A stretch of DNA of 11,051 bases from a virus (Duplodnaviria; Heunggongvirae; Uroviricota; Caudoviricetes). Under the pieces are notes generated by a model, which worked only from the letters and a program-made list of their open reading frames with translations, did no database searches and was not told the origin of the DNA. The stretch spans positions 1 through 11,051 of IMG/VR virus record IMGVR_UViG_2671180296_000007. One strand, given 5' to 3'. The position numbers and the translations under genes were made by a program. Each line of letters opens with the position of its first letter. Position 1 is the first letter of the stretch. Positions 1 through 11,051 of this stretch are shown in pieces.

Positions 1-1242
1 ATGGCGAGAAAAACACCCCCATTAACCACAGTGCAGATCAAAGCAGCCAGACCAGCGCAAAAGGAGTACACCCTACAGGACGGCGGTGGGCTTTTTCTCC
101 TGGTAAAACCGTCCGGATCAAAACTCTGGCGATTTTCCTACTACCGACCATCGGACAAAAAAAGAATATTGCTGAGTTTTGGATCGCTTGAAGATGTTTC
201 CCTGGCTGATGCCAGAAAACGCCGTAGCGAGTACAGGACGTTAATCAGTGCCGGAACTGACCCGCAGGACCATGAGAAGAAAAAACGAGAGGCAGAGGCC
301 CGAAGACAAGGGAACACGTTCGAAAATGTGGCGGCGGCATGGTACCAGGTGAAAATCAGCCAGAATCTGGCCCCCAACACGATTAAAGACATCTGGCGTT
401 CGCTGGATAAATATGTATTCCCGTTCATCGGCAACACGCCAATAGATACCCTCACTGCCCGAAGGTTCGTTGAGGTGCTTACACCCATCAAGGAGCGCGG
501 CAACCTGGAAACACTCAAGCGGGTTTTACAGCGCGTTAATGAGGTAATGGATTACGCCGCCAACAGTGGGCTGATTGATGCCAATCCGGCTATGAATGTG
601 CGTAAGGCGTTCCCCTCCCCTGTAAAAAAACATATGCCAACAATCCGCCCCGAACAGTTGCCGGAGCTTATGCAGGCTTTATCCGTATCAGCAACAGAAC
701 GGCAGACCAGATTACTGATTGAATGGCAGCTACTGACTGTAACCCGTCCGGTTGAAGCATCGTCAGCACGCTGGGAAGAAATCGACATGGACGCGCAACA
801 ATGGACGATCCCCGCCGGACGCATGAAGATGCGGCGTGATCACGTTATCCCGCTTTGTAGTCAGGCTATGGCGGTACTGGAGGCCATGAAGCCAATCAGC
901 CACCACCGCGAGCACGTTTTCCCTAGCCTGAAAGACCCACGGCAGCCTATGAACAGCCAGACCGCCAACGCAGCATTGCGGCGAATGGGATTCGCTGGCG
1001 TGCTGGTGTCTCATGGATTACGCGCCATATTCAGCACAGCAGCGAACGAGGAAGGATTCGAGCCGGACGTAATCGAGGCCGCACTCGCACACGTGGACAC
1101 GAACGAGGTAAGGCGAGCATATAACCGAAGTAACTACCTGGAAAAGCGCGTGGTGCTTATGCGCTGGTGGGGGGAATTTGTAGAGGCCGCAGCAACCGGA
1201 GTGACCATAGCCAGTGGTAAAAGGGGTATCCGTGCCGTGTAA
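1..1242 (+). CDS. int: Tyrosine recombinase / phage integrase, P4-type
   Basis: Full ORF of 413 aa. The N-terminus (KEYTLQDGGGLFLLVKPSGSKLWRFSYY) is typical of the P4-integrase N-terminal domain, and the C-terminal half has the recombinase-like HGLRAIFST region and a tyrosine near the C-terminus (RRAYNRSNYLEKR). Recognised from family knowledge, not searched. Confidence 0.9.
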   Translation: MARKTPPLTTVQIKAARPAQKEYTLQDGGGLFLLVKPSGSKLWRFSYYRPSDKKRILLSFGSLEDVSLADARKRRSEYRTLISAGTDPQDHEKKKREAEARRQGNTFENVAAAWYQVKISQNLAPNTIKDIWRSLDKYVFPFIGNTPIDTLTARRFVEVLTPIKERGNLETLKRVLQRVNEVMDYAANSGLIDANPAMNVRKAFPSPVKKHMPTIRPEQLPELMQALSVSATERQTRLLIEWQLLTVTRPVEASSARWEEIDMDAQQWTIPAGRMKMRRDHVIPLCSQAMAVLEAMKPISHHREHVFPSLKDPRQPMNSQTANAALRRMGFAGVLVSHGLRAIFSTAANEEGFEPDVIEAALAHVDTNEVRRAYNRSNYLEKRVVLMRWWGEFVEAAATGVTIASGKRGIRAV

Positions 1243-1343
1243 CTGTACAAAAAACCAGTAAAAGCGATGCAAACCATGCTAAACCATCGTATAATCACCA
1301 TATACAGAGAGACCCGACTCTTGAAATTCAAGGAGTTATCCGA

Positions 1344-1586
1344 GTGTTTTTCAATGAAAAGGTATCCCCTGCCTATGGTGAAGGCCTTCAACTGGCCTTA
1401 ATGGCAAATCGTGAATTCTGGTCAACGTACGATCCGGAAGACAAATCAACTGCCCCCACAAAACACGAGGTAGTCAGTTTTTTGCGCTCGCGTGGCGCAT
1501 CGAAAAATCTGGCTGAAAGTATCGACAAGGTGCTGAGGCCCACCAGCCTTAAATGCGGTGGGCGACCTAAGAAGTGGAAACGGTAA
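1344..1586 (+). CDS. Hypothetical small protein (80 aa from GTG, or 61 aa from the ATG at 1401)
   Basis: ORF preceded by AGGAG (1331-1335) 8 nt before GTG 1344 and followed by a hairpin plus T-run. Basic C-terminal tail GGRPKKWKR. No family recognised. Confidence 0.35.
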   Translation: MFFNEKVSPAYGEGLQLALMANREFWSTYDPEDKSTAPTKHEVVSFLRSRGASKNLAESIDKVLRPTSLKCGGRPKKWKR

Positions 1587-1591
1587 TCACA

Positions 1592-1621
1592 ATAGCGGCC
1601 CCTTGCGGTCGCTATTTTTTT
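1592..1621 (+). terminator. Rho-independent terminator-like hairpin plus T-run
   Basis: Imperfect stem atagcggcc / ggtcgctat immediately followed by tttttttt, 6 nt after the stop of the 1344-1586 ORF. Confidence 0.4.
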
Positions 1622-1657
1622 GCAGAAAGAAAAGCGTAATCAATAAGATAAAAAACA

Positions 1658-1691
1658 GTGGGTACCGTTTTAAAACGGTGGGTACTGTTTT
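1658..1691. promoter_or_regulatory. Putative operator: perfect 16-bp palindrome within two direct 14-bp repeats
   Basis: ACCGTTTTAAAACGGT (1664-1679) is a perfect palindrome. It sits inside tandem copies GTGGGTACCGTTTT (1658-1671) and GTGGGTACTGTTTT (1678-1691), about 70 bp upstream of the alpA start. Confidence 0.4.
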
Positions 1692-1756
1692 TCCCGCCCT
1701 GCCCTGTTTTACCGTATTTATCACCGGAATACGCCGGATTAACGAGGTAAAACATA

Positions 1757-1963
1757 GTGGAAACAATCAGAAAAATTCTTACCCGTCAGGAAGTAAAAAA
1801 TATTCTGCGCATCAAGGCAGACAGTTCGCTACAGGACATGATCAACGCCGGAAAATTCCCGAAAGGCTTCAAAATCGGTCTGCGCCGTGTTGGCTGGTAT
1901 GAAGATGAAGTGCTGGCCTGGCTGAAAGAGCGCGAGGAAGAAGCGCGCGGAACGGCTGCGTAA
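1757..1963 (+). CDS. alpA: AlpA-family DNA-binding regulator (phage transcriptional regulator / excisionase-like)
   Basis: 68 aa with GTG start. Pattern LTRQEV..IL.I...S..DMINAGKFPKGFKIG.RRVGWYEDEVLAWL fits the AlpA signature. Position directly after int is the canonical P4/PICI arrangement. Confidence 0.8.
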   Translation: METIRKILTRQEVKNILRIKADSSLQDMINAGKFPKGFKIGLRRVGWYEDEVLAWLKEREEEARGTAA

Positions 1964-2110
1964 TGGTGTGAGGCGTAACGCGATGAACATAACAAAAAGC
2001 GCCCCGTTGCCGGAGCGCCCTTGCGAACAATTAACCTGCTGCGAAAAAAATGGATCAGTGCAGTGGAATTATATCAACCGTGTGACGAAGCGCCACAATT
2101 GCCGGATAAC

Positions 2111-2142
2111 AGGCAAAACAAAGGCCACCCGCTACGGTGGCC
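2111..2142 (-). terminator. Putative rho-independent terminator for the minus-strand small gene
   Basis: Stem ggccacc (2123-2129) / ggtggcc (2136-2142) with a 6-nt loop. On the minus strand it is followed by TTTGTTTTGCCT. Confidence 0.4.
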
Positions 2143-2245
2143 CCTCGACACAAGCTACACGTTATCCCCAACGCATGAGCATAGCCAACAATGCCACATT
2201 TGCGGCTGGTGGGCAAAGCGTAACCGGAAAAAAATTCCGGTGGAG

Positions 2246-2425
2246 CTACTCCTGCTCTTTGGCCTTGCGGCGCTGGCGGCGTTTGATCTCGCCGCGCATG
2301 GCTGCACTTATAAACTGCCCTGTACTTTCGCCTTCTTCTTTCACGTTTTCCATGCCTTCAATAATTTCATGGGCAATACGTGCAGTTACAGATTGTGATT
2401 TTGCATTCTTTGGACCTGTTGCCAT
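2246..2425 (-). CDS. Small basic-tailed protein (59 aa), putative transcriptional regulator of the divergent switch
   Basis: Start set at the internal ATG (2425) because a perfect AAGGAG lies 5 nt upstream on the minus strand. Sequence MATGPKNAKSQSVTARIAHEIIEG...KRRQRRKAKEQE. Divergent from the Icd-like operon with shared repeated operators. Function inferred from context only. Confidence 0.5.
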   Translation of the reverse strand: MATGPKNAKSQSVTARIAHEIIEGMENVKEEGESTGQFISAAMRGEIKRRQRRKAKEQE

Positions 2426-2445
2426 GTCTAACTCCTTATGTTTTT

Positions 2446-2540
2446 GGTGTAAGACAATATACACGAAAAAAAATTATTTTGAAGGGTTGACGTGTAAGAC
2501 ACTATTATTTTACATTGTGTCTTACACCTTGTTGATACAA
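2446..2540. promoter_or_regulatory. Divergent promoter/operator region with three copies of TGTAAGACAC
   Basis: Direct copies at 2447-2456 and 2492-2502; inverted copy at 2517-2527, giving a perfect 11-bp inverted repeat with 14-bp spacer. Candidate -35 TTGACG (2487-2492) and -10 TACATT (2511-2516) for the + operon. Candidate minus-strand -35 TTCAAA / -10 TATATT overlap the operator copy at 2447-2456. Confidence 0.45.
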
Positions 2541-2624
2541 GGTGCAGAAACGACGAAACCCGGCAGTGCGCTAACACTAACCGGGCTTCTAACCACCAAC
2601 GATAACGAGAGTATCGAGGTAGCT

Positions 2625-3239
2625 ATGTTAAATCATACCATACACCCGCAAGGGCGGGACTCGCACAACCTGAATAAATATATCTGGCGTTTTATCGCCC
2701 TGAGCACAGCACAACCGCGCGTGATTACCATTGAGGCCACCAGCGAACAGGAAGCACGCCAGAAAAACCAGTTGATCGCCATTGCCAGCCAGGGCTATGA
2801 TTTATCCGCACCAGCAAAATCTGGTGCCGGGATTGGCGTCCTGGTATTTAACGAAGCGCACAACACGCGCCCTGCGTGTTTTTTTGTGCCGGATAGTCAC
2901 ACCTTATCAATGGTGGGCTGTATGGGGGCGGAGCAATCCGCGCCGGGTTCTTCGTTAACCGGTTACGCCAACCCTGTACAGTCTACCGCCAGCGAAATTG
3001 GCGTTTCCTGCGGTGGGTTTATTAAACCTAACGAAGAGGCTGCCAACATGGCTACTATCCCTGCCCTCGTACATTCTCAAACTGCCTTTATCTGGCGCTT
3101 TATCATCTTTGGCGCGTCAGAATCCCAAATCATCCACGTAACCGCCTGGACGGAACGCGAAGCGCGTAGTCGTTGCCCGTCCGGTTGTGTTGCTGTATTC
3201 GCCGCCCGTATTCGTCAGGAGGTGCGCCATGTGCAATAA
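2625..3239 (+). CDS. Icd-like (host cell division inhibitor-like) protein with two copies of the Icd motif
   Basis: The track ORF 1968-3239 is trimmed to ATG 2625 (GAGG 6 nt upstream), because the upstream part overlaps the minus-strand gene and the promoter region. Two copies of the motif: YIWRFIALSTAQPRVITIEATSEQEAR (N-terminal) and FIWRFIIFGASESQIIHVTAWTEREAR (C-terminal). Family assignment is from memory of the Icd-like signature. Confidence 0.5.
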   Translation: MLNHTIHPQGRDSHNLNKYIWRFIALSTAQPRVITIEATSEQEARQKNQLIAIASQGYDLSAPAKSGAGIGVLVFNEAHNTRPACFFVPDSHTLSMVGCMGAEQSAPGSSLTGYANPVQSTASEIGVSCGGFIKPNEEAANMATIPALVHSQTAFIWRFIIFGASESQIIHVTAWTEREARSRCPSGCVAVFAARIRQEVRHVQ

Positions 3240-3699
3240 CACCCGTCCGGACGCAGCCGCCGAAGCTATCAGAACGCTGATGCACGCGCTGATTAATATT
3301 TCTGTTATCGCAGACATGGCGCATAAACACGCCACCAGCGAAACAGAATATGCCGGGGCTTTCGTTCCTCACTCACTGGCTGTTATGCAATTTAGTGCTG
3401 ATATGGCACTGAATGAGGCTAAAGCCATCCTGATTGCTGATTGTGAAAATGGGGGGGTTATGCGTGATGATCGTTTTAATGCCCTGAAACAGGAATTTTC
3501 CGGCGTATCTGATGATGCGAGTGATGCGCTTTCGTCAATATCCGAACTGATAAGAGCGGCCTTTTTCTTACTTGGCACGAAAGAAAATAAAACAACGGGG
3601 TTTGATGTACTAAATATCACCGCTGATTATGCGGAATATGTGGCAGAAGTCGATTTAAGAAAAATCCCGAATTGTCGCGGCATTAATAACGCTTCTTGA
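3229..3699 (+). CDS. Hypothetical protein (156 aa)
   Basis: ATG 3229 preceded by AGGAGG (3217-3222) with a 6-nt spacer; overlaps the end of the upstream gene by 11 nt, suggesting one operon. Acidic, alanine-rich. No family recognised. Confidence 0.6.
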   Translation: MCNNTRPDAAAEAIRTLMHALINISVIADMAHKHATSETEYAGAFVPHSLAVMQFSADMALNEAKAILIADCENGGVMRDDRFNALKQEFSGVSDDASDALSSISELIRAAFFLLGTKENKTTGFDVLNITADYAEYVAEVDLRKIPNCRGINNAS

Positions 3700-3777
3700 G
3701 CCTGTAATAAATGAATCGCAGGAAATAGAAACATTGCACGACAGATATAAAGAACAGCACACCGGAGAATAAAAATA

Positions 3778-4077
3778 ATGAAACTTAAATATTCTGGCTT
3801 AACTGCCAGTGGCAACACTCACCCTAAATTTACGCGCGGTGATATTTACCGCGACCAGTACGGCGGCACGGTAATGATTAAGGGCGTGGCGGGACGGTGC
3901 GTAACTTACCGCCGTGAAGGTTACGAATATGATTGCGTGATGCCTGTTTATCAGTTCCGGCGTGATTTTTCTCTGGTACAGGCAGCGCCCCGCAGTAAAC
4001 CAACCAGCAGGGAGAAAGCACGCGCCAATATTCAGAAGATGAAAACCATGATTAAAGGATTCAGGGGTAAAAAATGA
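3778..4077 (+). CDS. Hypothetical small protein (99 aa), translationally coupled to the primase
   Basis: GGAG 3762-3765 upstream of ATG 3778. The stop overlaps the primase start in an ATGA motif (4074-4077). Confidence 0.6.
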   Translation: MKLKYSGLTASGNTHPKFTRGDIYRDQYGGTVMIKGVAGRCVTYRREGYEYDCVMPVYQFRRDFSLVQAAPRSKPTSREKARANIQKMKTMIKGFRGKK

Positions 4078-5828
4078 AACTGGCACCGAACGTAAAACAG
4101 CAGTCACGCGGCATAAAACACAAAGAAACAGAAGTCATTATTTTTGCGGGTAGTGATGCCTGGTCACACGCGAAACAATGGCAGGAACATGATGCGCGTA
4201 TGGCCGGAGATAATGAGCCTCCTGTGTGGCTTGGGGAGCAGCAGCTATCCGAACTGGATAATCTGCAAATTGTGCCGGAAGGCCGAAAATCAGCACGCAT
4301 ATACAGGGCCGGATATCTTGCGCCAGTAATGATAAAGGCGATTGGCCAGAAGCTGGCGGCGGCAGGCGTACAGGATGCAAATTTTTACCCTGATGGTATG
4401 CACGGTCAGAAGGTGGAGAACTGGAGCGAATATCTGGCCCGTGAGCGCCAGAATCTTTCTGATGGTCTGGTCATTGAGCTTCCGGTAATGCAAAAGGCGC
4501 AACTTTCGCAGATGGCGGACAGTGAGCGCGCACAGATGCTTGCTGGTCGATTTGATGGCGTTTGTGTGCATCCGGAAAGTGAAATCGTTCACGTATGGCG
4601 CGGCGGGGTATGGTGTCCGGTCAGCACAATGGAACTTAGCCGCGAAATGGTGGCGATCTATTCAGAGCACAGGGCCACTTTCAGCAAGCGCGTAATCAAT
4701 AACGCCGTGGAAGCGTTAAAAGTTATTGCCGAACCAATGGGCGAGCCGTCCGGCGATTTGTTGCCGTTCGCCAATGGTGCGCTTGACCTGAAAACGGGGG
4801 AATTTTCCCCGCACACGCCGGAGAACTGGATCACCACGCACAACGGCATTGAGTACACGCCACCAGCACCTGGGGAGAACATCCGCGATAACGCGCCAAA
4901 CTTTCATAAATGGCTTGAGCACGCAGCCGGAAAAGACCCGCGCAAGATGATGCGTATATGTGCCGCGCTGTACATGATTATGGCGAACCGGTACGACTGG
5001 CAGATGTTTATTGAGGCCACCGGAGACGGCGGGAGCGGTAAAAGTACATTCACGCACATAGCCAGCCTTCTGGCAGGGAAACAGAACACGGTGAGCGCGG
5101 AGATGACATCGCTTGATGATGCTGGTGGACGTGCGCAGGTTGTCGGGAGTCGTCTTATCGTCCTGGCTGACCAGCCGAAATATACAGGCGAAGGAACGGG
5201 CATCAAGAAAATCACGGGCGGCGACCCCGTGGAAATAAACCCGAAATATGAGAAGCGTTTTACGGCGGTAATCAGGGCGGTGGTGCTGGCTACCAACAAT
5301 AACCCGATGATATTCACCGAACGGGCCGGAGGTGTGTCACGTCGTCGCGTAATTTTCCGTTTCGACAATATCGTCAGTGAGGCCGAAAAAGACAGGGAGC
5401 TACCGGAAAAGATTGCGGCTGAAATCCCTGTCATTATCCGCCGATTGCTGGCGAACTTTACCGACCCTGAGAAGGCACGGGCTTTACTACTGGAACAGCG
5501 TGACGGTGATGAAGCACTGGCAATAAAGCAACAGACGGATCCGGTTATTGAGTTTTGCCAGTTCCTGAATTTTCTGGAGGAAGCGCGCGGCCTGATGATG
5601 GGTGGCGGTGGTGATTCAGTGAAGTACACGACCAGGAACAGCCTTTATCGCGTCTATCTGGCGTTTATGGCGTACGCAGGCAGGAGCAAACCGCTAAACG
5701 TAAATGACTTTGGCAAGGCTATGAAGCCAGCCGCGAAAGTTTACGGACATGAATATATTACGCGGAAAGTTAAGGGAGTAACGCAGACTAACGCAATAAC
5801 AACAGACGAGTGCGACGCGTTTTTATAA
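4074..5828 (+). CDS. DNA primase/helicase, P4-alpha C-terminal type (D5_N-like domain plus SF3 P-loop NTPase)
   Basis: 584 aa. Walker A GDGGSGKST (about 5018-5046), Walker B-like LIVLADQP, downstream NNNP motif. Overall resemblance to phage/plasmid primase P4-family C-terminal domain proteins (PICI pri-rep type). Confidence 0.85.
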   Translation: MKLAPNVKQQSRGIKHKETEVIIFAGSDAWSHAKQWQEHDARMAGDNEPPVWLGEQQLSELDNLQIVPEGRKSARIYRAGYLAPVMIKAIGQKLAAAGVQDANFYPDGMHGQKVENWSEYLARERQNLSDGLVIELPVMQKAQLSQMADSERAQMLAGRFDGVCVHPESEIVHVWRGGVWCPVSTMELSREMVAIYSEHRATFSKRVINNAVEALKVIAEPMGEPSGDLLPFANGALDLKTGEFSPHTPENWITTHNGIEYTPPAPGENIRDNAPNFHKWLEHAAGKDPRKMMRICAALYMIMANRYDWQMFIEATGDGGSGKSTFTHIASLLAGKQNTVSAEMTSLDDAGGRAQVVGSRLIVLADQPKYTGEGTGIKKITGGDPVEINPKYEKRFTAVIRAVVLATNNNPMIFTERAGGVSRRRVIFRFDNIVSEAEKDRELPEKIAAEIPVIIRRLLANFTDPEKARALLLEQRDGDEALAIKQQTDPVIEFCQFLNFLEEARGLMMGGGGDSVKYTTRNSLYRVYLAFMAYAGRSKPLNVNDFGKAMKPAAKVYGHEYITRKVKGVTQTNAITTDECDAFL

Positions 5829-5839
5829 TTTTTTGTAAT

Positions 5840-6070
5840 TGCTGTCTACCCTGTCTACCTGAGTAAAGAAAAATACATTTAATTCAGTGCATTAAGTTAT
5901 GTAGATAGCCTTTTTTTACTATCTACCCACTATCTACCCTCTCTACCTGATTTTACCTGAATCAGACAGGGAGGTAGACACGGGGTAGATAGTGGATAAA
6001 AGCACTCTACCCCGCTGAAAGCCGCGCCATTACTGGCATGAGGGCCACTAAGGTAGATAAGGTAGACAAG
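5840..6070. repeat. Iteron array / putative origin of replication
   Basis: Hexamer core TCTACC on + at 5845, 5854, 5922, 5933, 5942 and 6006. Its complement GGTAGA at 5973, 5984, 6052 and 6061. Arms form an imperfect inverted repeat (ccactatctacc 5927-5938 versus ggtagatagtgg 5984-5995). AT-rich stretch 5872-5920 and a DnaA-box-like TTATCCACT (complement of 5991-5999). Located immediately downstream of the primase gene. Confidence 0.6.
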
Positions 6071-6116
6071 GGGAGGCACAACTCAAAACTTTTTAAACGA
6101 GGGGGTAAAAATAAAT

Positions 6117-6395
6117 ATGCACACTTCAGGGAAATTTAATAAATCACTCAAAAAACGCAGAGACAGAACAGAACCGAAATATCGCGCGTTAGACATGACA
6201 GAGCACGCTTTAAAGGTGGCAATCAGAACGATAGACCGCCACGCGGGGGAAGGATACGCGAAAGCACATCCCGACCTGATAAGCGCATTCATGACCACGA
6301 CGGCGGCAAATTTTGCCACGCTGACAGAGCGGGAGATTGCCGAAGCGGAACAGGTAACAACAATCAACGTTAAAACCGGAGAGGTGGAATCATGA
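6117..6395 (+). CDS. Hypothetical protein (92 aa)
   Basis: GAGGGGG upstream of ATG 6117. Stop overlaps the ssb start (ATGA at 6392-6395). No family recognised. Confidence 0.55.
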   Translation: MHTSGKFNKSLKKRRDRTEPKYRALDMTEHALKVAIRTIDRHAGEGYAKAHPDLISAFMTTTAANFATLTEREIAEAEQVTTINVKTGEVES

Positions 6396-6814
6396 CAGCA
6401 CAGATAGCCGCTTACGGGCGGCTGGTGGACGACCCGCAGGTAAAACAGACCAGCAAGGGCACACCGATGACGCTGGCGCGTATGGCGGTCCCCCTTCCGT
6501 GCAGCCAGGCAGATGACGGAACGGCGACGATGTGGTTATCCGTCCTGGCATTTGGCAGACAGGCCGAAGCACTGGAAAGGCACCGCAAGGGTGAACTCCT
6601 GAGCGTGGCGGGTAACATGCAGATCAGCCAGTGGACTGGGCAGAACGGAGAAACGCGGCAGGGCTGGCAGGTTATCGCAGACAGTGTAATCAGTGCGCGA
6701 ACGGCGCGACTGGGCGGCAAAAAAGGTCAACAGGGCCAGGCTACTGACGCGCTGAACAGGGCAAAACAACAGGCGGGGAATGATGATCCGTACGGGGATA
6801 ACATACCGTTTTAA
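6392..6814 (+). CDS. ssb: Single-stranded DNA-binding protein (SSB-like OB fold)
   Basis: 140 aa. Pattern GRLVDDPQVKQT..G...LARMAV...W..VLAFGRQAE......KGELLSVAG.....W....G..R follows the SSB OB-fold signature. Gly/Gln-rich linker and C-terminal DDPYGDNIPF, resembling the acidic ...DDDIPF tip of E. coli SSB. Confidence 0.8.
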   Translation: MTAQIAAYGRLVDDPQVKQTSKGTPMTLARMAVPLPCSQADDGTATMWLSVLAFGRQAEALERHRKGELLSVAGNMQISQWTGQNGETRQGWQVIADSVISARTARLGGKKGQQGQATDALNRAKQQAGNDDPYGDNIPF

Positions 6815-6829
6815 GCGACGAGTGACAGA

Positions 6830-6852
6830 AGCCGGAGCAATCCGGCTTTTTT
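6830..6852 (+). terminator. Rho-independent terminator
   Basis: Stem agccgga / tccggct with a GCAA loop followed by TTTTTT, 16 nt after the ssb stop. Confidence 0.6.
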
Positions 6853-6900
6853 ACGGGTCCTCCTAGCGGGGTGGGCCTGAACACGGGGCGGGAGGCGCGG
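6853..6900 (+). other. Degenerate cos-like sequence (cosQ-like ACGGGTCCT plus mutated cosN)
   Basis: acgggtcctcctagcggggtgggcctgaacacggggcgggaggcgcgg parallels the intact cos at 9294-9343 (acgggtcctttccggcatatggacctgttacggggcggcgacctcgcgcg). The 12-nt cohesive-end core is altered (GGGCGGGAGGCG versus GGGCGGCGACCT). Confidence 0.4.
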
Positions 6901-7032
6901 AAAAAAGCGCATTTTTGTGATTTTATCGTCATCATCATCATGAGCGTAATTTATTGTTTTTAATTGTTTTGATGCAAAAAAGATGATGTTTGTGGTTAAT
7001 TTTTGTTCGACATCTTTGCAGGCAGATAAAAA

Positions 7033-7069
7033 AGCCCGATAAGGTCAGAGGTGGCTTATCGGGCTTTTG
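7033..7069. terminator. Bidirectional terminator-like hairpin
   Basis: Stem agcccgataag (7033-7043) / cttatcgggct (7055-7065) flanked by an A-run upstream and a T-run downstream. Confidence 0.5.
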
Positions 7070-7100
7070 CATATGAGGCTTTTTGGTGCACTGACACACA

Positions 7101-7198
7101 TGATCGGGATCATCATTTCATAATTTGCAACACAACTCAACATCATTGCATAAAATGCAATCATGATTATAATCATAACTGGATGAACATCCAGTTAT
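7101..7198 (+). promoter_or_regulatory. Near-consensus sigma70-like promoter with nested palindromic operators upstream of the capsid operon
   Basis: -35 TTGCAT (7146-7151), 16-bp spacer, -10 TATAAT (7168-7173). Palindromes: TGATCggGATCA (7101-7112), TTGCATaaaATGCAA (7146-7160), ATGATTATAATCAT (7163-7176), and a perfect 11-2-11 ATAACTGGATGaaCATCCAGTTAT (7175-7198) over the predicted transcription start. Confidence 0.5.
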
Positions 7199-7229
7199 GA
7201 TTTTTTAAGTCAAAGAGGAATTTCTTACT

Positions 7230-7436
7230 ATGGCTGAAGAGAAAAAAGGCGGTGTTTCGGTGTACATAAGCCCCGAAATCGTGGAGGTGCTCAAGCAGCG
7301 CCACAAAAAAAACTATGAGGCTGGCGTGGCGGCTGGACTGGATCCGCTGATGACGCCGGAGCCGTCGATAGGTTCACTTGTACGCTCTTATTTACTTGCG
7401 GCGCTTGGGATGCATAAAAATTATGGGGGTGAATAA
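7230..7436 (+). CDS. Hypothetical small protein (68 aa), first gene of the capsid operon
   Basis: AAGAGGAA (7213-7220) upstream of ATG 7230. Stop overlaps the capsid gene start (TAATG). No family recognised. Confidence 0.55.
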   Translation: MAEEKKGGVSVYISPEIVEVLKQRHKKNYEAGVAAGLDPLMTPEPSIGSLVRSYLLAALGMHKNYGGE

Positions 7437-8491
7437 TGGCAGGCAAAGCAACGGCACTTAACACTAACCAGCTTTTCGCGTACCTGAATCGCGGGGATAT
7501 TGCGGAATTTAAATTCAGTCCGCTGTTTACCACGCTGTTTTTCCCGAACGTGGCGACATTCAACACCCAAAGCATCATGCTGGACACCCTGGACATTGAA
7601 GAGGTTACGATGTCGGCGTTTTGTTCGCCTATGGTGGGTAGTCAGGTCCAGCGCGATAAAGGGTACGAAACCAGCACGATTAAACCTGGATACATGAAGC
7701 CGAAGCACGAAATCGATCCAACGAAAACCATCATGCGTATGGCTGGAGAAGATCCGGCACAGCTTAATGACCCAACCTATCGCCGTATGCGCCTGATTAC
7801 TGGCAACATGCGCCGCCAGATAAACGCGATTAAAGCGCGCGTGGAATGGCTGGCGGTGAATGCGGTAACGACCGGAAAAAACATCATTGAGGGCGAAGGC
7901 ATAGAACGCTATGAAATCGACTGGAAGATACCGGAAAAAAACATCATAGAGCAGGCCAAAGGCCGTAAATGGTCCGAGCAGGACAAAGAAACCCACGATC
8001 CAATCTATGATATCGAGCTTTATGCGGATCAAGCAGGTTGCCCCTCCAACGTCATGATCATGGGCGCTGAGGTATGGCGAACGTTACGCAGCTTTAAAAA
8101 ATTCCGCGAACTGTACGATCTTTCCCGTGGTTCAGAGTCCTCCGCAGAGCTGGCCTGTAAAAACCTGGGCGAAGTGGTGAGCTTTAAAGGATATCTGGGC
8201 GATATTGCCCTTATCGTCTATTCCGGCAAATACACTGACAGCGACGGCACCGAAAAATATTTCCTTGAGCCTGATTTGCTGGTCCTGGGCAACACCAACA
8301 ATAAAGGGCTGGTGGCCTATGGTGCGATTATGGATCAGGAAGCGGTCAGAACGGGCGCAACGCAAAACATGTTTTACCCGAAAAACTGGATTGAGGACGG
8401 CGATCCGGCGATTGAGTACGTGCAGACGCACAGCGCACCGCAGCCGGTTCCGGCAGATATTCGCAAATTTGTTACCGTCAAAATTGGTTAA
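7436..8491 (+). CDS. Major capsid protein, lambda gpE family
   Basis: 351 aa. Matches to lambda E recalled from memory: FKFSPLFTTLFF (lambda FKFDPLFLRLFF), PGYMKPKHEI (PGYVKPKHEV), DPTYRRMR (DPAYRRRR), SFKGYLGDIALIVYSGKY (SYKGMYGDVAIVVYSGQY), YPKNW, and full-length collinearity. GGGGG RBS 6 nt upstream. Confidence 0.9.
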   Translation: MAGKATALNTNQLFAYLNRGDIAEFKFSPLFTTLFFPNVATFNTQSIMLDTLDIEEVTMSAFCSPMVGSQVQRDKGYETSTIKPGYMKPKHEIDPTKTIMRMAGEDPAQLNDPTYRRMRLITGNMRRQINAIKARVEWLAVNAVTTGKNIIEGEGIERYEIDWKIPEKNIIEQAKGRKWSEQDKETHDPIYDIELYADQAGCPSNVMIMGAEVWRTLRSFKKFRELYDLSRGSESSAELACKNLGEVVSFKGYLGDIALIVYSGKYTDSDGTEKYFLEPDLLVLGNTNNKGLVAYGAIMDQEAVRTGATQNMFYPKNWIEDGDPAIEYVQTHSAPQPVPADIRKFVTVKIG

Positions 8492-8502
8492 CGGGGGATT
8501 CT

Positions 8503-8838
8503 ATGGACACTCCATACATTGAGTTATTTGCAGGCAGTCAGCAGGTTGCCACGACGCTGGTACATTTTGCCGCTGATGCTGGCGTTATTCAGGAATTTAC
8601 CCCGCTGATGCTGGCGGACAATGGCGAATTTAAGCCGTGGGATGGTCAGGAATCTGGCAAGGCTGTTTATCTGACGGCGTATCCCGTGGACACGTCAACG
8701 CAGAAATCAGCACAGTGTTACAAGACGGGGATATTCAATATTGCCGCCGTTAACTGGCCTGAGAGCGTCGACACCGACGCGAAAAAATGTGCCGCCTTTG
8801 CGGGTTCTGGTGTATCTGTTCAGCCGCTGGCGCGATAA
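8503..8838 (+). CDS. Head decoration protein, lambda gpD family
   Basis: 111 aa. TPLMLADNGEFKPWDG and C-terminal YKTGIFNIAAVNWPESVDTDAKKCAAFAGSGVSV parallel lambda D (TPLMLDTSSRKLVAWDG ... [35 protein letters not shown]). Confidence 0.8.
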   Translation: MDTPYIELFAGSQQVATTLVHFAADAGVIQEFTPLMLADNGEFKPWDGQESGKAVYLTAYPVDTSTQKSAQCYKTGIFNIAAVNWPESVDTDAKKCAAFAGSGVSVQPLAR

Positions 8839-8851
8839 GCAGGGGGGAACG

Positions 8852-9265
8852 ATGGCAACGAATGAAAGTATCATGGCGCTACCGCTGGCGAGTAAATTTA
8901 AAGCTGAAGCGCGGGCAATGGCTGACAGATGTCTATCAACCTACGAAGCTATATATCAACTTAACAAACTGGAAGAACAGGACAAGCCGCGCGCTGATGC
9001 GATTATGTCGCTTCATGAATCTGACGACTATCAGCCGCTGTTACGTGCAATGGCAAACGTGCCTTGTATTGATGTTGATACGGCTAAAAACATCCTGAAC
9101 ATGACCATAGAACAGGAACGCCAGAAGGTTGCACCAGAGCTTACCGCAGCCTTTGAAAACTTTATGGACATGCACAGCCCACAAGCCGTATCAGCTGGCA
9201 TGGCATACGATGGCAGAAACCCGGGCGATGACGGCGACATTGATCGCATACTGAAAACCATCTGA
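8852..9265 (+). CDS. Hypothetical acidic protein (137 aa), last gene before cos
   Basis: The track ORF 8741-9265 is trimmed to ATG 8852, preceded by AGGGGGG. It is followed by a terminator and then cos. No family recognised. Confidence 0.55.
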   Translation: MATNESIMALPLASKFKAEARAMADRCLSTYEAIYQLNKLEEQDKPRADAIMSLHESDDYQPLLRAMANVPCIDVDTAKNILNMTIEQERQKVAPELTAAFENFMDMHSPQAVSAGMAYDGRNPGDDGDIDRILKTI

Positions 9266-9271
9266 GACAAG

Positions 9272-9293
9272 GCCGGAGAAATCCGGCTTTTTT
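9272..9293 (+). terminator. Rho-independent terminator
   Basis: Stem gccgga / tccggc with a GAAA loop followed by TTTTTT. Nearly identical to the terminator at 6830-6852. Confidence 0.6.
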
Positions 9294-9500
9294 GCGGGTC
9301 CTTTCCGGCATATGGACCTGTTACGGGGCGGCGACCTCGCGCGTTTTCACTATTTATGAAAATTTTTCGGGATCCATGTCCGGTTTCTCTGCAAGTTAAC
9401 CATATGAAAAATATAAAAACATGCTTTCCATGAACCGGACATGCGCAAAAAAACAGACACTAAAACCGGACATCGTACCCGTTAACCGGAAGTGTGCAAA
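9294..9500 (+). other. Lambda-type cos site, forward orientation (cosQ-like, cosN, candidate cosB)
   Basis: cosQ-like GGGTCCTTTCCGG (9296-9308). GTTACG then the 12-nt cohesive-end sequence GGGCGGCGACCT (9326-9337). Downstream TTTTCACTATTTATGAAAATTTTTCGG closely matches the lambda left end (CGCGGGTTTTCGCTATTTATGAAAATTTTCCGG). Candidate terminase-binding repeats AACCGGACAT at 9433, 9464 and 9484, with an inverted copy at 9374-9384. Confidence 0.8.
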
Positions 9501-9699
9501 AATCACACGCATTGCTGCGCGTGATTAACAATTTATCGGCTTTACTGTTCTGTATAGGCTGGGTGGCGTCATGCCGTAGCCGTTCTCCGTGCCAGCATGG
9601 AATAATCCGTAGTTACAGAGCGGTAAAGTTAAAAATCACTTTCTGTTACGCCATCAAATACGCGATACAACAACCATGTGTTTTTACAAAACCATTTGA

Positions 9700-9898
9700 T
9701 ATCATTGAATTTTTTCACATTAATGACATCAAAATACATCGTAAGGTTGTTGTATTTATTTTATTTTATTTTTACCTTACTTATCAATTAGATATACCAA
9801 ACAATTAAACAACAACCACCCCATCAAAAAATCTCATAAATAGCGAAAAACCGCGAGGTCGCCGCCCCGTAACGGGCCATAATTCCTGGAAGGACCCG
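9700..9898 (-). other. Second lambda-type cos site, inverted orientation (cosQ-like, cosN, different candidate cosB)
   Basis: On the minus strand: cgggtccttccagg ... gttacgGGGCGGCGACCTcgcggtttttcgctatttatga. The cosN core is the complement of 9856-9873. The inward-facing flank carries GGTTGTTGT-type repeats (minus-strand reading), not AACCGGACAT. Confidence 0.7.
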
Positions 9899-9931
9899 AC
9901 GACACCAGACTATCAGAACGATGGGGGCACA

Positions 9932-10213
9932 ATGACAGAAGCCGAACTACTGCGATTAATCCGTCGCGTTGCCGGAATCAGCCAGCAGGCTGACGAACAG
10001 GCCACGCAGCCGGACAGCGTGACCGCAGAAAATTATGTTCGTGTGGTTGCTGAGGTGATGCACCGTGATGGTATCCAGCTTAATGATGCGGATATGCGCG
10101 ACATACGGATCCGCGTTCTTGAAATGCTGGCCTACCGTCGCCGGATACAGACGTACAGGGAAAAAGCCAAAATAACGTACCAGTGGAAGAAGCCGGAGCG
10201 GTTACGGCGGTAA
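9932..10213 (+). CDS. Hypothetical protein (93 aa)
   Basis: GGGGG 5 nt upstream of ATG 9932. First ORF downstream of the cos region. No family recognised. Confidence 0.55.
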   Translation: MTEAELLRLIRRVAGISQQADEQATQPDSVTAENYVRVVAEVMHRDGIQLNDADMRDIRIRVLEMLAYRRRIQTYREKAKITYQWKKPERLRR

Positions 10214-10233
10214 CTTGCTGAAGTTAAAGCATA

Positions 10234-10332
10234 ATGCAAATTTGCACTCTGGCCTAACCCGTTAATATTTCAGCAAAGTGCAAATTTGCGTTCTGTAGCT
10301 GGTGGCTGGCAGAATGTAAATTTACATTCTGG
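10234..10332. repeat. Three tandem about 19-bp repeats, each containing a 12-bp palindrome
   Basis: aTGCAAATTTGCActctgg (10234-10252), gTGCAAATTTGCgttctg (10279-10296), aTGTAAATTTACAttctgg (10314-10332). They lie in a convergent intergenic region between the stops of the flanking genes. Confidence 0.6.
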
Positions 10333-10336
10333 TGAT

Positions 10337-10636
10337 TTAATCATCTGATTTACCCAGCCCGTACCGGATTACCGTACAGTGAGCGCCATCGCTACCGATA
10401 CGCACATCAAAGCGGGGTTCGCGCACTTTCACGCGGTACAGGATCCCATCATTTACCATAGCGTTTAACGTTCGTCGGGTTGCCTCTATGTGATATCGCT
10501 GATATTCGGAACCATAGAGCAGCACTGTCACACCACGAACATCAAAAGGCGGATCTCCGGCCTCCACCCGCACCCAATCGCGATATTCAGGTTTGTAAAG
10601 TTCAAGAATCTGTTTTTTGTGCCTGGTCATTCTCAT
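10337..10636 (-). CDS. Hypothetical protein (99 aa)
   Basis: The track ORF is trimmed to ATG 10636 (MRMTRHKK...), which has AAGGAA 7 nt upstream on the minus strand. The longer N-terminal extension is hydrophobic and low-complexity and lacks an RBS. No family recognised. Confidence 0.5.
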   Translation of the reverse strand: MRMTRHKKQILELYKPEYRDWVRVEAGDPPFDVRGVTVLLYGSEYQRYHIEATRRTLNAMVNDGILYRVKVREPRFDVRIGSDGAHCTVIRYGLGKSDD

Positions 10637-10742
10637 GTGTGATTCCTTATTGTGGGACAGTACTGTCATACAATAAGCTATGAGGGAAATTATCAAAAGA
10701 ACGGAAACCAACCATTCAGATTTAACAGGTATCAATGGGATT

Positions 10743-11051
10743 ATGCTTATGGTGCATGATGACAAAGCGGAAGAACTGGAAGCGAAAGGTTTATGGCGAC
10801 GGGCGGCTAATCGCTGGGGTGAGTTACTGAAACAGGCGGCAAGTGATGAAGCGCGTCAGTATGTAACGGAACGACGAACGGCATGTATCCGGAAGGCAAC
10901 CATAACCCGGGAACCGGAAAGAGACCTGATTTGTGCCATAAGAACCGCCGCCACAAAAACACTAACGGACATGGGGATCGACCTGAAAAAAGAAGATCCA
11001 CTGCGGGGCATTCAGCACGGACATACAAAGCGGGATAAACGCAGGAAGTAA
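10743..11051 (+). CDS. PerC-family transcriptional regulator-like protein
   Basis: N-terminal AEELEAKGLWRRAANRWGELL recalls the conserved PerC/Pch-family motif, from memory and not searched. Start is uncertain (10680, 10743 or 10749); 10743 is chosen to leave room for a divergent promoter. The perfect palindrome GACAGTACTGTC (10656-10667) lies in the intergenic region. Confidence 0.45.
   Translation: MLMVHDDKAEELEAKGLWRRAANRWGELLKQAASDEARQYVTERRTACIRKATITREPERDLICAIRTAATKTLTDMGIDLKKEDPLRGIQHGHTKRDKRRK

Follow-up and report, generated by a model that had tools for sequence, protein, structure and literature searches.

The 204-codon Icd-like open frame of a PICI-type satellite as a probable P4 eta/kil-type nested gene pair with an isrK-C4 RNA cassette

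Immunity loci in which a C4-type antisense RNA acts on a small icd-like gene belong to a mechanism class known since the 1990s, and the hallmark of Icd-like proteins such as P1 Icd and P4 Kil is the inhibition of host cell division on their expression. In the immI region of phage P1, arranged as c4-icd-ant, the C4 RNA blocks the ribosome-binding site (RBS) of icd (PMC8198154). In P4, the CI RNA is encoded within eta, and Kil is a truncated form of Eta; only transcription from an upstream promoter yields full-length Eta, the translation of which prevents termination (PMC10111431). The isrK-orf45-anrP region of Gifsy-1 has its own promoter, read-through of a leaky terminator, coupled ORFs, and a stretch with conserved nucleotides and a variable peptide (PMC4825925). 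The presence of this mechanism class in Gram-negative PICIs was noted in 2023, where the Rfam models C4 and isrK were reported to detect relatives of CI and seqA in several of these elements (PMC10111431).

The locus described here lies in a stretch of 11,051 nucleotides (positions 1 to 11,051 of IMG/VR record IMGVR_UViG_2671180296_000007), which is referred to as the window. A sequence-only reading had interpreted its open frame 2625-3239 as a fused tandem Icd protein. Features were collected from the ORF list, profile searches, promoter consensus and terminator scans, pattern searches, and an Rfam scan at gathering threshold (isrK 50 bits, C4 45 bits):

2246-2464, minus strand: ORF of a YlcI/YnfO gene, divergent from the upstream promoter (YlcI_YnfO_N, NF041551, 66 bits)
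2487-2527, plus strand: candidate sigma-70-like promoter TTGACG-18-TACATT (2487-2516) inside an inverted repeat (consensus scan)
2625-3239, plus strand: long open frame of 204 codons, probable equivalent of P4 eta (ORF list, profiles at both ends)
2625-2760, plus strand: 5' fragment of a stand-alone Icd-like gene, 45 codons plus 1 nt (partial NF033153 match, relatives)
2772-2801, plus strand: candidate internal promoter TTGATC-18-TATGAT, ending 7 nt short of isrK (consensus scan)
2808-2884, plus strand: isrK-type small RNA (Rfam RF01394, 80 bits, model positions 1-77 of 77)
2833-2839 and 2849-2856, plus strand: first bipartite C4 target inside isrK, a1 TTGGCGT and b1 TAACGAAG (pattern search)
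2862-2880, plus strand: intrinsic terminator of isrK, stem plus T run (terminator scan)
2906-2993, plus strand: C4/CI-type antisense RNA (Rfam RF01695, 73.4 bits, full model)
2950-2957 and 2965-2971, plus strand: C4 loops b' CTTCGTTA and a' ACGCCAA, complementary to a1/b1 and a2/b2
2998-3039, plus strand: second bipartite C4 target, a2 TTGGCGT (2998-3004) and b2 TAACGAAG (3029-3036) (pattern search)
3048-3239, plus strand: complete 63-aa Icd-like/P4 Kil-like gene with its own Shine-Dalgarno sequence (SD) and ATG, nested at the 3' end of the long frame (NF033153)
3229-3699, plus strand: downstream 156-aa ORF with SD AGGAGG, its ATG overlapping the icd stop codon (ATGTGCAATAA) (phrog_2512, unknown function)

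The long frame starts at ATG 2625, preceded by the SD GAGG (2616-2619), and ends with TAA (3237-3239). It leads from an icd-like start codon through the RNA cassette into a complete icd/kil-like gene. Both RNA genes are members of their Rfam families, with scores well above the gathering thresholds, isrK ending in its terminator and C4 showing compensatory changes. In the C4 fold, none of the 27 base pairs was broken among 10 alleles including P4 CI, and 11 pairs showed compensatory double changes. The bipartite motif TTGGCGT...TAACGAAG or its complement was found three times in the 11-kb window (0.00 expected): in isrK (2833-2856), 3' of C4 (2998-3036) and, as the complement, in the C4 loops (2950-2971). 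The antisense RNA is thus complementary to sites on both of its sides. Among the relatives, a1/a'/a2 and b1/b'/b2 co-vary three ways with complementarity always retained, which yields at least nine allele combinations built from five a-types and seven b-types. The b2 element overlaps the SD GAAGAGG (3033-3039) of the internal in-frame ATG at 3048. Duplex prediction with RNAduplex (whole C4 against 30-nt windows) was uninformative, as it unfolds C4 and returns mostly self-pairing; an explicit pattern search for loops and targets was used instead.

The middle of the long frame also matches a protein family, Pfam PF10554 (Phage_ASH; aa 59-151, 59.5 bits, cut-off 26); this is the part of the frame occupied by the isrK and C4 genes. 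Variable sites in the cassette (2766-3047) are distributed over codon positions 1, 2 and 3 as 52/48/55. In the 63-aa gene the distribution is 10/9/26, with an excess at third positions. The pattern is thus that of a protein in the nested icd gene and that of an RNA, free of constraint on amino acid identity, in the middle. When Phage_ASH was examined as a protein domain, no purifying selection at the amino acid level was detected in the cassette, where changes track RNA pairing; hence, the Phage_ASH 'domain' behaves in this clade as a conceptual translation. By family, the 63-aa product is a putative cell-division inhibitor. In RefSeq, the homologous gene is annotated as a separate 63-aa CDS and the upstream part as an 'ash family' or Icd-like pseudogene 'missing C-terminus'.

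Together, these findings make it probable that the 204-codon frame is a nested gene pair of the P4 eta/kil type which carries an RNA immunity cassette with a translation-through switch. By analogy with P1, P4 and Gifsy-1, the internal promoter would drive isrK and, by read-through, a C4 precursor. In the quiescent state, processed C4 would pair with a2/b2 and hide the icd RBS; with this RBS occluded, icd and the genes coupled to it would be silent and premature termination would be favoured, which would constitute satellite immunity. Once the upstream operator-controlled promoter fires, ribosomes initiating at ATG 2625 would translate the whole stretch of isrK with its terminator, C4 and a2/b2. 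Translation-through would prevent RNA folding, pairing and termination, and transcription would reach the replication genes. The long polypeptide would be largely a by-product ending in a full Icd domain. Like P4 eta, the long frame is probably translated under some conditions. The two promoters of the P4 plan have their candidates in the consensus matches at 2487-2516 and 2772-2801; at the internal site, the -10 hexamer is invariant and the -35 hexamer nearly so, with a variable spacer (alignment of 31 relatives).

Whether the frame is kept open was determined in relatives from IMG/VR (80 loci) and E. coli RefSeq (1,856 matching records; 77 complete genomes covering at least 80% of the region). 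Diversity was taken from these two sources; a search of genome contigs with the 204-aa query returned one locus only (L005, a short form). Three layouts were found: (i) long forms with isrK and C4; (ii) long forms with a shortened first Icd motif or none; (iii) short forms with a lone icd gene of 58-67 aa directly after the upstream promoter and without RNA genes. No Rfam matches were present in the short forms L005, L042, L046, L049, L058, L060, L086 and L087. Most long-form relatives lack the first Icd motif, and it is dispensable in close relatives.

Thirty-one distinct long forms and P4 were aligned. The only length difference within the cassette is a 3-nt indel located in the spacer. In cassette frame 0, no stop codon occurs in any correctly extracted allele except that of L021; frames 1 and 2 contain 1-10 stops. 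This count leaves out L003, L027 and L030, which were clipped at the 5' end during extraction and whose frames are all open. According to dinucleotide shuffles, the chance of openness is 0.02-0.13 per allele and 0.02 for P4; the difference between frames is a moderate one, since many alleles have no more than 1-2 stops in frame 1. At least four types of N-terminal junction occur, all in frame with the cassette (slash marks the joint): ..EQEAR/QKNQ..; ..YIWRFLA/RKNQ..; ..HNLNK/AGMKN.. or ..HNLNK/PDVKN..; and ..FVWRFLALNIGE/KNQ...

The same data bear on a more modest explanation, namely that only the RNAs and the 63-aa icd gene are functional, that the first fragment is a dead stump, and that the openness of the frame, due to chance or hitch-hiking, contributes nothing to read-through. 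An open frame could indeed be passively inherited, given that the RNA genes are conserved. This would agree with the RefSeq annotation of the upstream part as a pseudogene, with the flat codon-position pattern of the cassette, with the loss of the first motif from most long forms, and with L021 (2109-2184), in which the second isrK hairpin has lost 1 nt (GCC-GGATT), which disrupts the long frame and leaves C4 and icd2 intact. Openness is therefore not obligatory, and L021 provides a natural test case for whether translation-through matters. However, the frame is open in 32 of the 33 long-form relatives, across at least five diverged RNA alleles, and in P4; the spacer indel comprises exactly 3 nt; and four or more independent junction types would all be in frame with a probability of about (1/3)^4 if unconstrained. 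In addition, ATG 2625 and its SD are retained, and the long frame of P4 is described as translated and needed for anti-termination in PMC10111431. A passive remnant is thus considered rather unlikely.

In some relatives, a second C4 RNA gene is located about 480 nt downstream of the first and is followed by another Icd-like ORF (L002, 2364-2451; L017, 2684-2772; L024, L035 and L036, near 2687-2775). In L024, L036 and L037, the second C4 is preceded by a match to Rfam c4-a1b1 (RF03163) at 2571-2620. These double-C4 loci are predicted tandem immunity cassettes of differing specificity.

The interpretation as a genuine fused tandem protein, in which a flexible Gly/Ser-rich linker would connect two functional Icd domains and activity would be altered, starts from a correct observation. 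NCBIfam profile NF033153 (phage_ICD_like, 'host cell division inhibitor Icd-like protein'; 48 positions, cut-off 25 bits) matches the long frame twice when its N- and C-terminal parts are searched separately, in agreement with the two Icd-type motifs that the sequence-only reading had recognized. The C-terminal 63 aa match the complete profile (positions 1-48 of 48; 59.6 bits, E 2.3e-16). The N-terminal 61 aa (2625-2807) match positions 1-32 of 48 with aa 19-46 (40 bits, E 2.9e-10). Although its score exceeds the cut-off, the first copy does not cover the full profile, as the part corresponding to CPxGC..FAARIRQ is replaced by the cassette at 2760/2761. The near-identical DNA repeat of 16 nt reported along with the motifs is real: 2681-2696 (TATCTGGCGTTTTATC) and 3089-3104 (TATCTGGCGCTTTATC) are identical at 15 of 16 positions, the initially proposed boundaries (2677-2697 and 3086-3106) being a few bases off. 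It codes for the I-W-R-F-I motif common to both icd copies and is thus due to their common ancestry rather than to a separate signal; a function as a separate regulatory element was rejected on the same grounds.

Apart from the two profile matches in a single open frame, the exact 204-aa model is present in NCBI as an 'Icd-like' or 'ash family' protein on 108 contigs, which would be compatible with a fused protein. Against this stand the absence of profile positions 33-48 from the first copy and the nature of the presumed linker. The middle is literally Gly/Ser-rich in conceptual translation, but its DNA is made up of the Rfam RNA genes isrK and C4, a promoter-like site and a terminator, and its substitutions are flat across codon positions and follow RNA pairing. 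Further, the first motif is dispensable in close relatives, and the second copy has its own SD and ATG. A true start elsewhere that splits the ORF, which the sequence-only reading had itself named as evidence against a fusion, was found in ATG 3048 and in the separate 63-aa gene of RefSeq. A comparison with single-domain homologues, also proposed at that stage, showed that many relatives carry lone icd genes without the cassette. The fused tandem protein is largely refuted by these results and is regarded as very improbable. An assembly or sequencing artefact joining two icd genes, for which no supporting point was found, is practically out of the question given the identical 204-aa product on those 108 contigs, including a complete chromosome of 5.49 Mb, the presence of the region in the 77 complete E. 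coli genomes and the same layout on IMG/VR contigs.

What distinguishes the frame, read as an eta/kil-type pair, is its N-terminal part. Leader MLNHTIHPQGRDSHNLNK and first motif YIWRFIALSTAQPRVITIEATSEQEAR both lie in the 5' fragment (2625-2760), in which the C-terminal third of the profile has no counterpart. Stand-alone icd genes of E. coli match query nt 1 or 6 to 136-141 (window 2625-2760) at 92-97% and diverge beyond; this 5' stretch of about 136 nt is common to hundreds of E. coli islands at the same level. The stand-alone gene of L086 reads MLNHTTHPQGRDSHNLNKYIWRFIALSTAQPRVITIEAASEQEAR-LQSPAGCVMVFAARIRQGVCHA (...EQEAR-LQSPAGCVMVFAARIRQGVCHA), and 2760/2761 is the exact point where such genes and the window part company. 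As the window follows the stand-alone gene for 45 codons and then switches, the first 'domain' corresponds to the 5' two-thirds of a resident icd gene. The breakpoint indicates that the 3' end of this gene is replaced by a promoter-isrK-C4-icd unit, recombined in frame with its own icd copy. The earlier suggestion of internal recombination found some support: in L087 (O157:H7), leader 1 and YIWRF are fused to a different icd body, which makes the IWRF motif a joint at which modules recombine. Natural variants have the appearance of recombinants formed at the Icd motif.

In 278 phage records, among them SfV (27612-27866), Salmonella phage 118970_sal3 (28036-28291) and Stx2 phages, there are regions with 70-75% identity to the isrK-C4 segment (window approximately 2817-3069). 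In these records, the segment lies under ORFs named antirepressor, Rha, transcriptional regulator or 'immunity region', and there, too, the cassette may sit in frame within the 5' portion of antirepressor genes.

The frame lies in a window that, by its gene content, looks like a capsid-encoding PICI-type satellite. The following profile matches were obtained outside the locus:

1-1242: integrase
1757-1963: AlpA
3778-4077: DUF4222
4074-5828: P4-type primase
6392-6814: SSB
7436-8491: major head protein (phrog_29)
8503-8838: head decoration protein (phrog_49)

Upstream of the long frame, inverted repeat I1 (arms 2492-2505 and 2514-2527, 14 nt, 93% complementary, core GTGTAAGACAC/GTGTCTTACAC) overlaps the -35 and -10 hexamers, and transcription of all 204 codons would start from 2487-2527, a candidate promoter under operator control. 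The homologue-matched start of the divergent YlcI/YnfO gene is ATG 2425 (60 aa). The palindrome and YlcI/YnfO are likely to be a putative operator and repressor of the early operon of the satellite. A homologue of the small minus-strand 'hypothetical protein' encoded between alpA and ylcI in relatives was sought in the window and not found. The overlap of the icd stop with the next start is kept in all relatives though the downstream gene differs. The 156-aa ORF (3229-3699) is probably translationally coupled to icd and is a candidate for a helper-derepression or antirepressor function; searches of Pfam and NCBIfam gave no match for it, nor any sign of an Ant-type antirepressor.

The long frame is part of a stop-free stretch on the plus strand (1926-3236) which comprises 437 codons and is the second longest in the window. 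This stretch starts just before the AlpA stop (1963) and runs through YlcI/YnfO, antisense and not codon-aligned, and through both promoters. About 60% of the relatives are likewise open far upstream (up to 819 codons in L010); in the remainder, a stop lies shortly before the promoter. In L086, PGAP names part of the upstream stop-free stretch an 'Icd-like' pseudogene. The upstream openness could be a relic of a P4-like overlap of eta with an alpA homologue, or due to chance.

With respect to annotation, two regulatory RNAs underlie the coding frame that goes by the name 'Icd-like' or 'ash family protein' in E. coli prophage-like islands, which number in the thousands. Gene callers report this frame in one of three ways: a single protein of 204 aa, a 63-aa gene with a pseudogene upstream, or the 63-aa gene by itself; for the present locus, the exact 204-aa product is already in NCBI and a 63-aa model exists as well. 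The P4-type plan offers a ready hypothesis for how the replication genes of a capsid-encoding satellite are silenced and activated, and the five a-types and seven b-types represent a natural catalogue of orthogonal RNA immunity specificities. More speculatively, promoter-isrK-C4-icd may be a portable 'gene-within-a-gene' cassette that moves among satellites and phages by recombination, with Icd-like coding sequence as homology arm, and that is tolerated only where the recipient frame stays open, translation-through being the universal off-switch. This idea is tentative and has perhaps a modest chance of being correct; if true, the 'Ash family' of Pfam and PGAP would not be a protein domain but the result of conceptually translating RNA genes that are free of stop codons.

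Of the described systems, Gifsy-1 of Salmonella shares with the window an isrK with an intrinsic terminator, a leaky one in Gifsy-1, and with a promoter of its own, here a candidate site, followed by an 'ORF' with conserved nucleotides and variable peptide and by a coupled gene. It differs in that the downstream gene encodes an antirepressor, that IsrK acts as a trans-activator of translation, and that an Icd-like gene is not reported there. The Phage_ASH or PGAP 'ash family protein' class has in common with the long frame the match of aa 59-151 above cut-off and the annotation of RefSeq relatives. The immI loci of P1 and P7 (c4-icd-ant1/2) resemble the locus in that a C4-family RNA lies upstream of a small icd gene with targets upstream (a1/b1) and over the icd RBS (a2/b2), in that icd is coupled to the next gene, and in that specificity alleles arise by co-variation of loops and targets. 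In contrast to P1/P7, the downstream gene is not Ant by any profile (phrog_2512), and a1/b1 is carried by a terminated isrK-type sRNA. The long frame spanning the RNAs is a feature of P4.

P4 is the closest counterpart. In its genome (NC_001609), a 214-codon frame on the minus strand (8168-8812) contains matches to isrK (8615-8692) and to the C4/CI RNA (8420-8507). P4 Eta matches Phage_ASH with aa 37-161, i.e. the RNA region, and NF033153 with aa 161-208; its 65-aa Kil segment scores 76 bits. Common to P4 eta/kil (seqA - cI RNA/seqB - seqC) and the locus are (i) a long ORF, of 214 aa in P4 and 204 aa in the window, running through isrK/seqA and C4/CI; (ii) an identical reading phase through the RNAs, with ..MVG/MVW.. 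at the C4 5' end; (iii) a nested Icd-like gene of 63-65 aa at the C-terminal end with its own start and RBS (..EEAANMAT.. here, ..QEAAIMAT.. in P4); (iv) a bipartite antisense/target layout on both sides of the RNA; and (v) a downstream start overlapping the stop codon. The candidate internal promoter (2772-2801) would be the analogue of PLE of P4 and of the isrK promoter of Gifsy-1. The position of P4 epsilon and P1 ant is occupied by the 156-aa ORF. Differences concern the surroundings and the N-terminus. P4 eta overlaps the end of, and is coupled to, the alpA homologue vis, whereas here a divergent YlcI/YnfO gene and the palindromic operator/promoter candidates lie between alpA and the frame, so that upstream control differs; the host element is a capsid-encoding PICI-like satellite and not P4. 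Finally, the N-terminus of P4 Eta is devoid of an Icd motif, whereas that of the present frame consists of a truncated icd gene. Judged by its layout, the architecture is that of P4 eta/kil with the retained 5' icd fragment at the N-terminus as the sole variant feature. The locus opens no new question; it is an ordinary member of a known system, and its main value lies in annotation.
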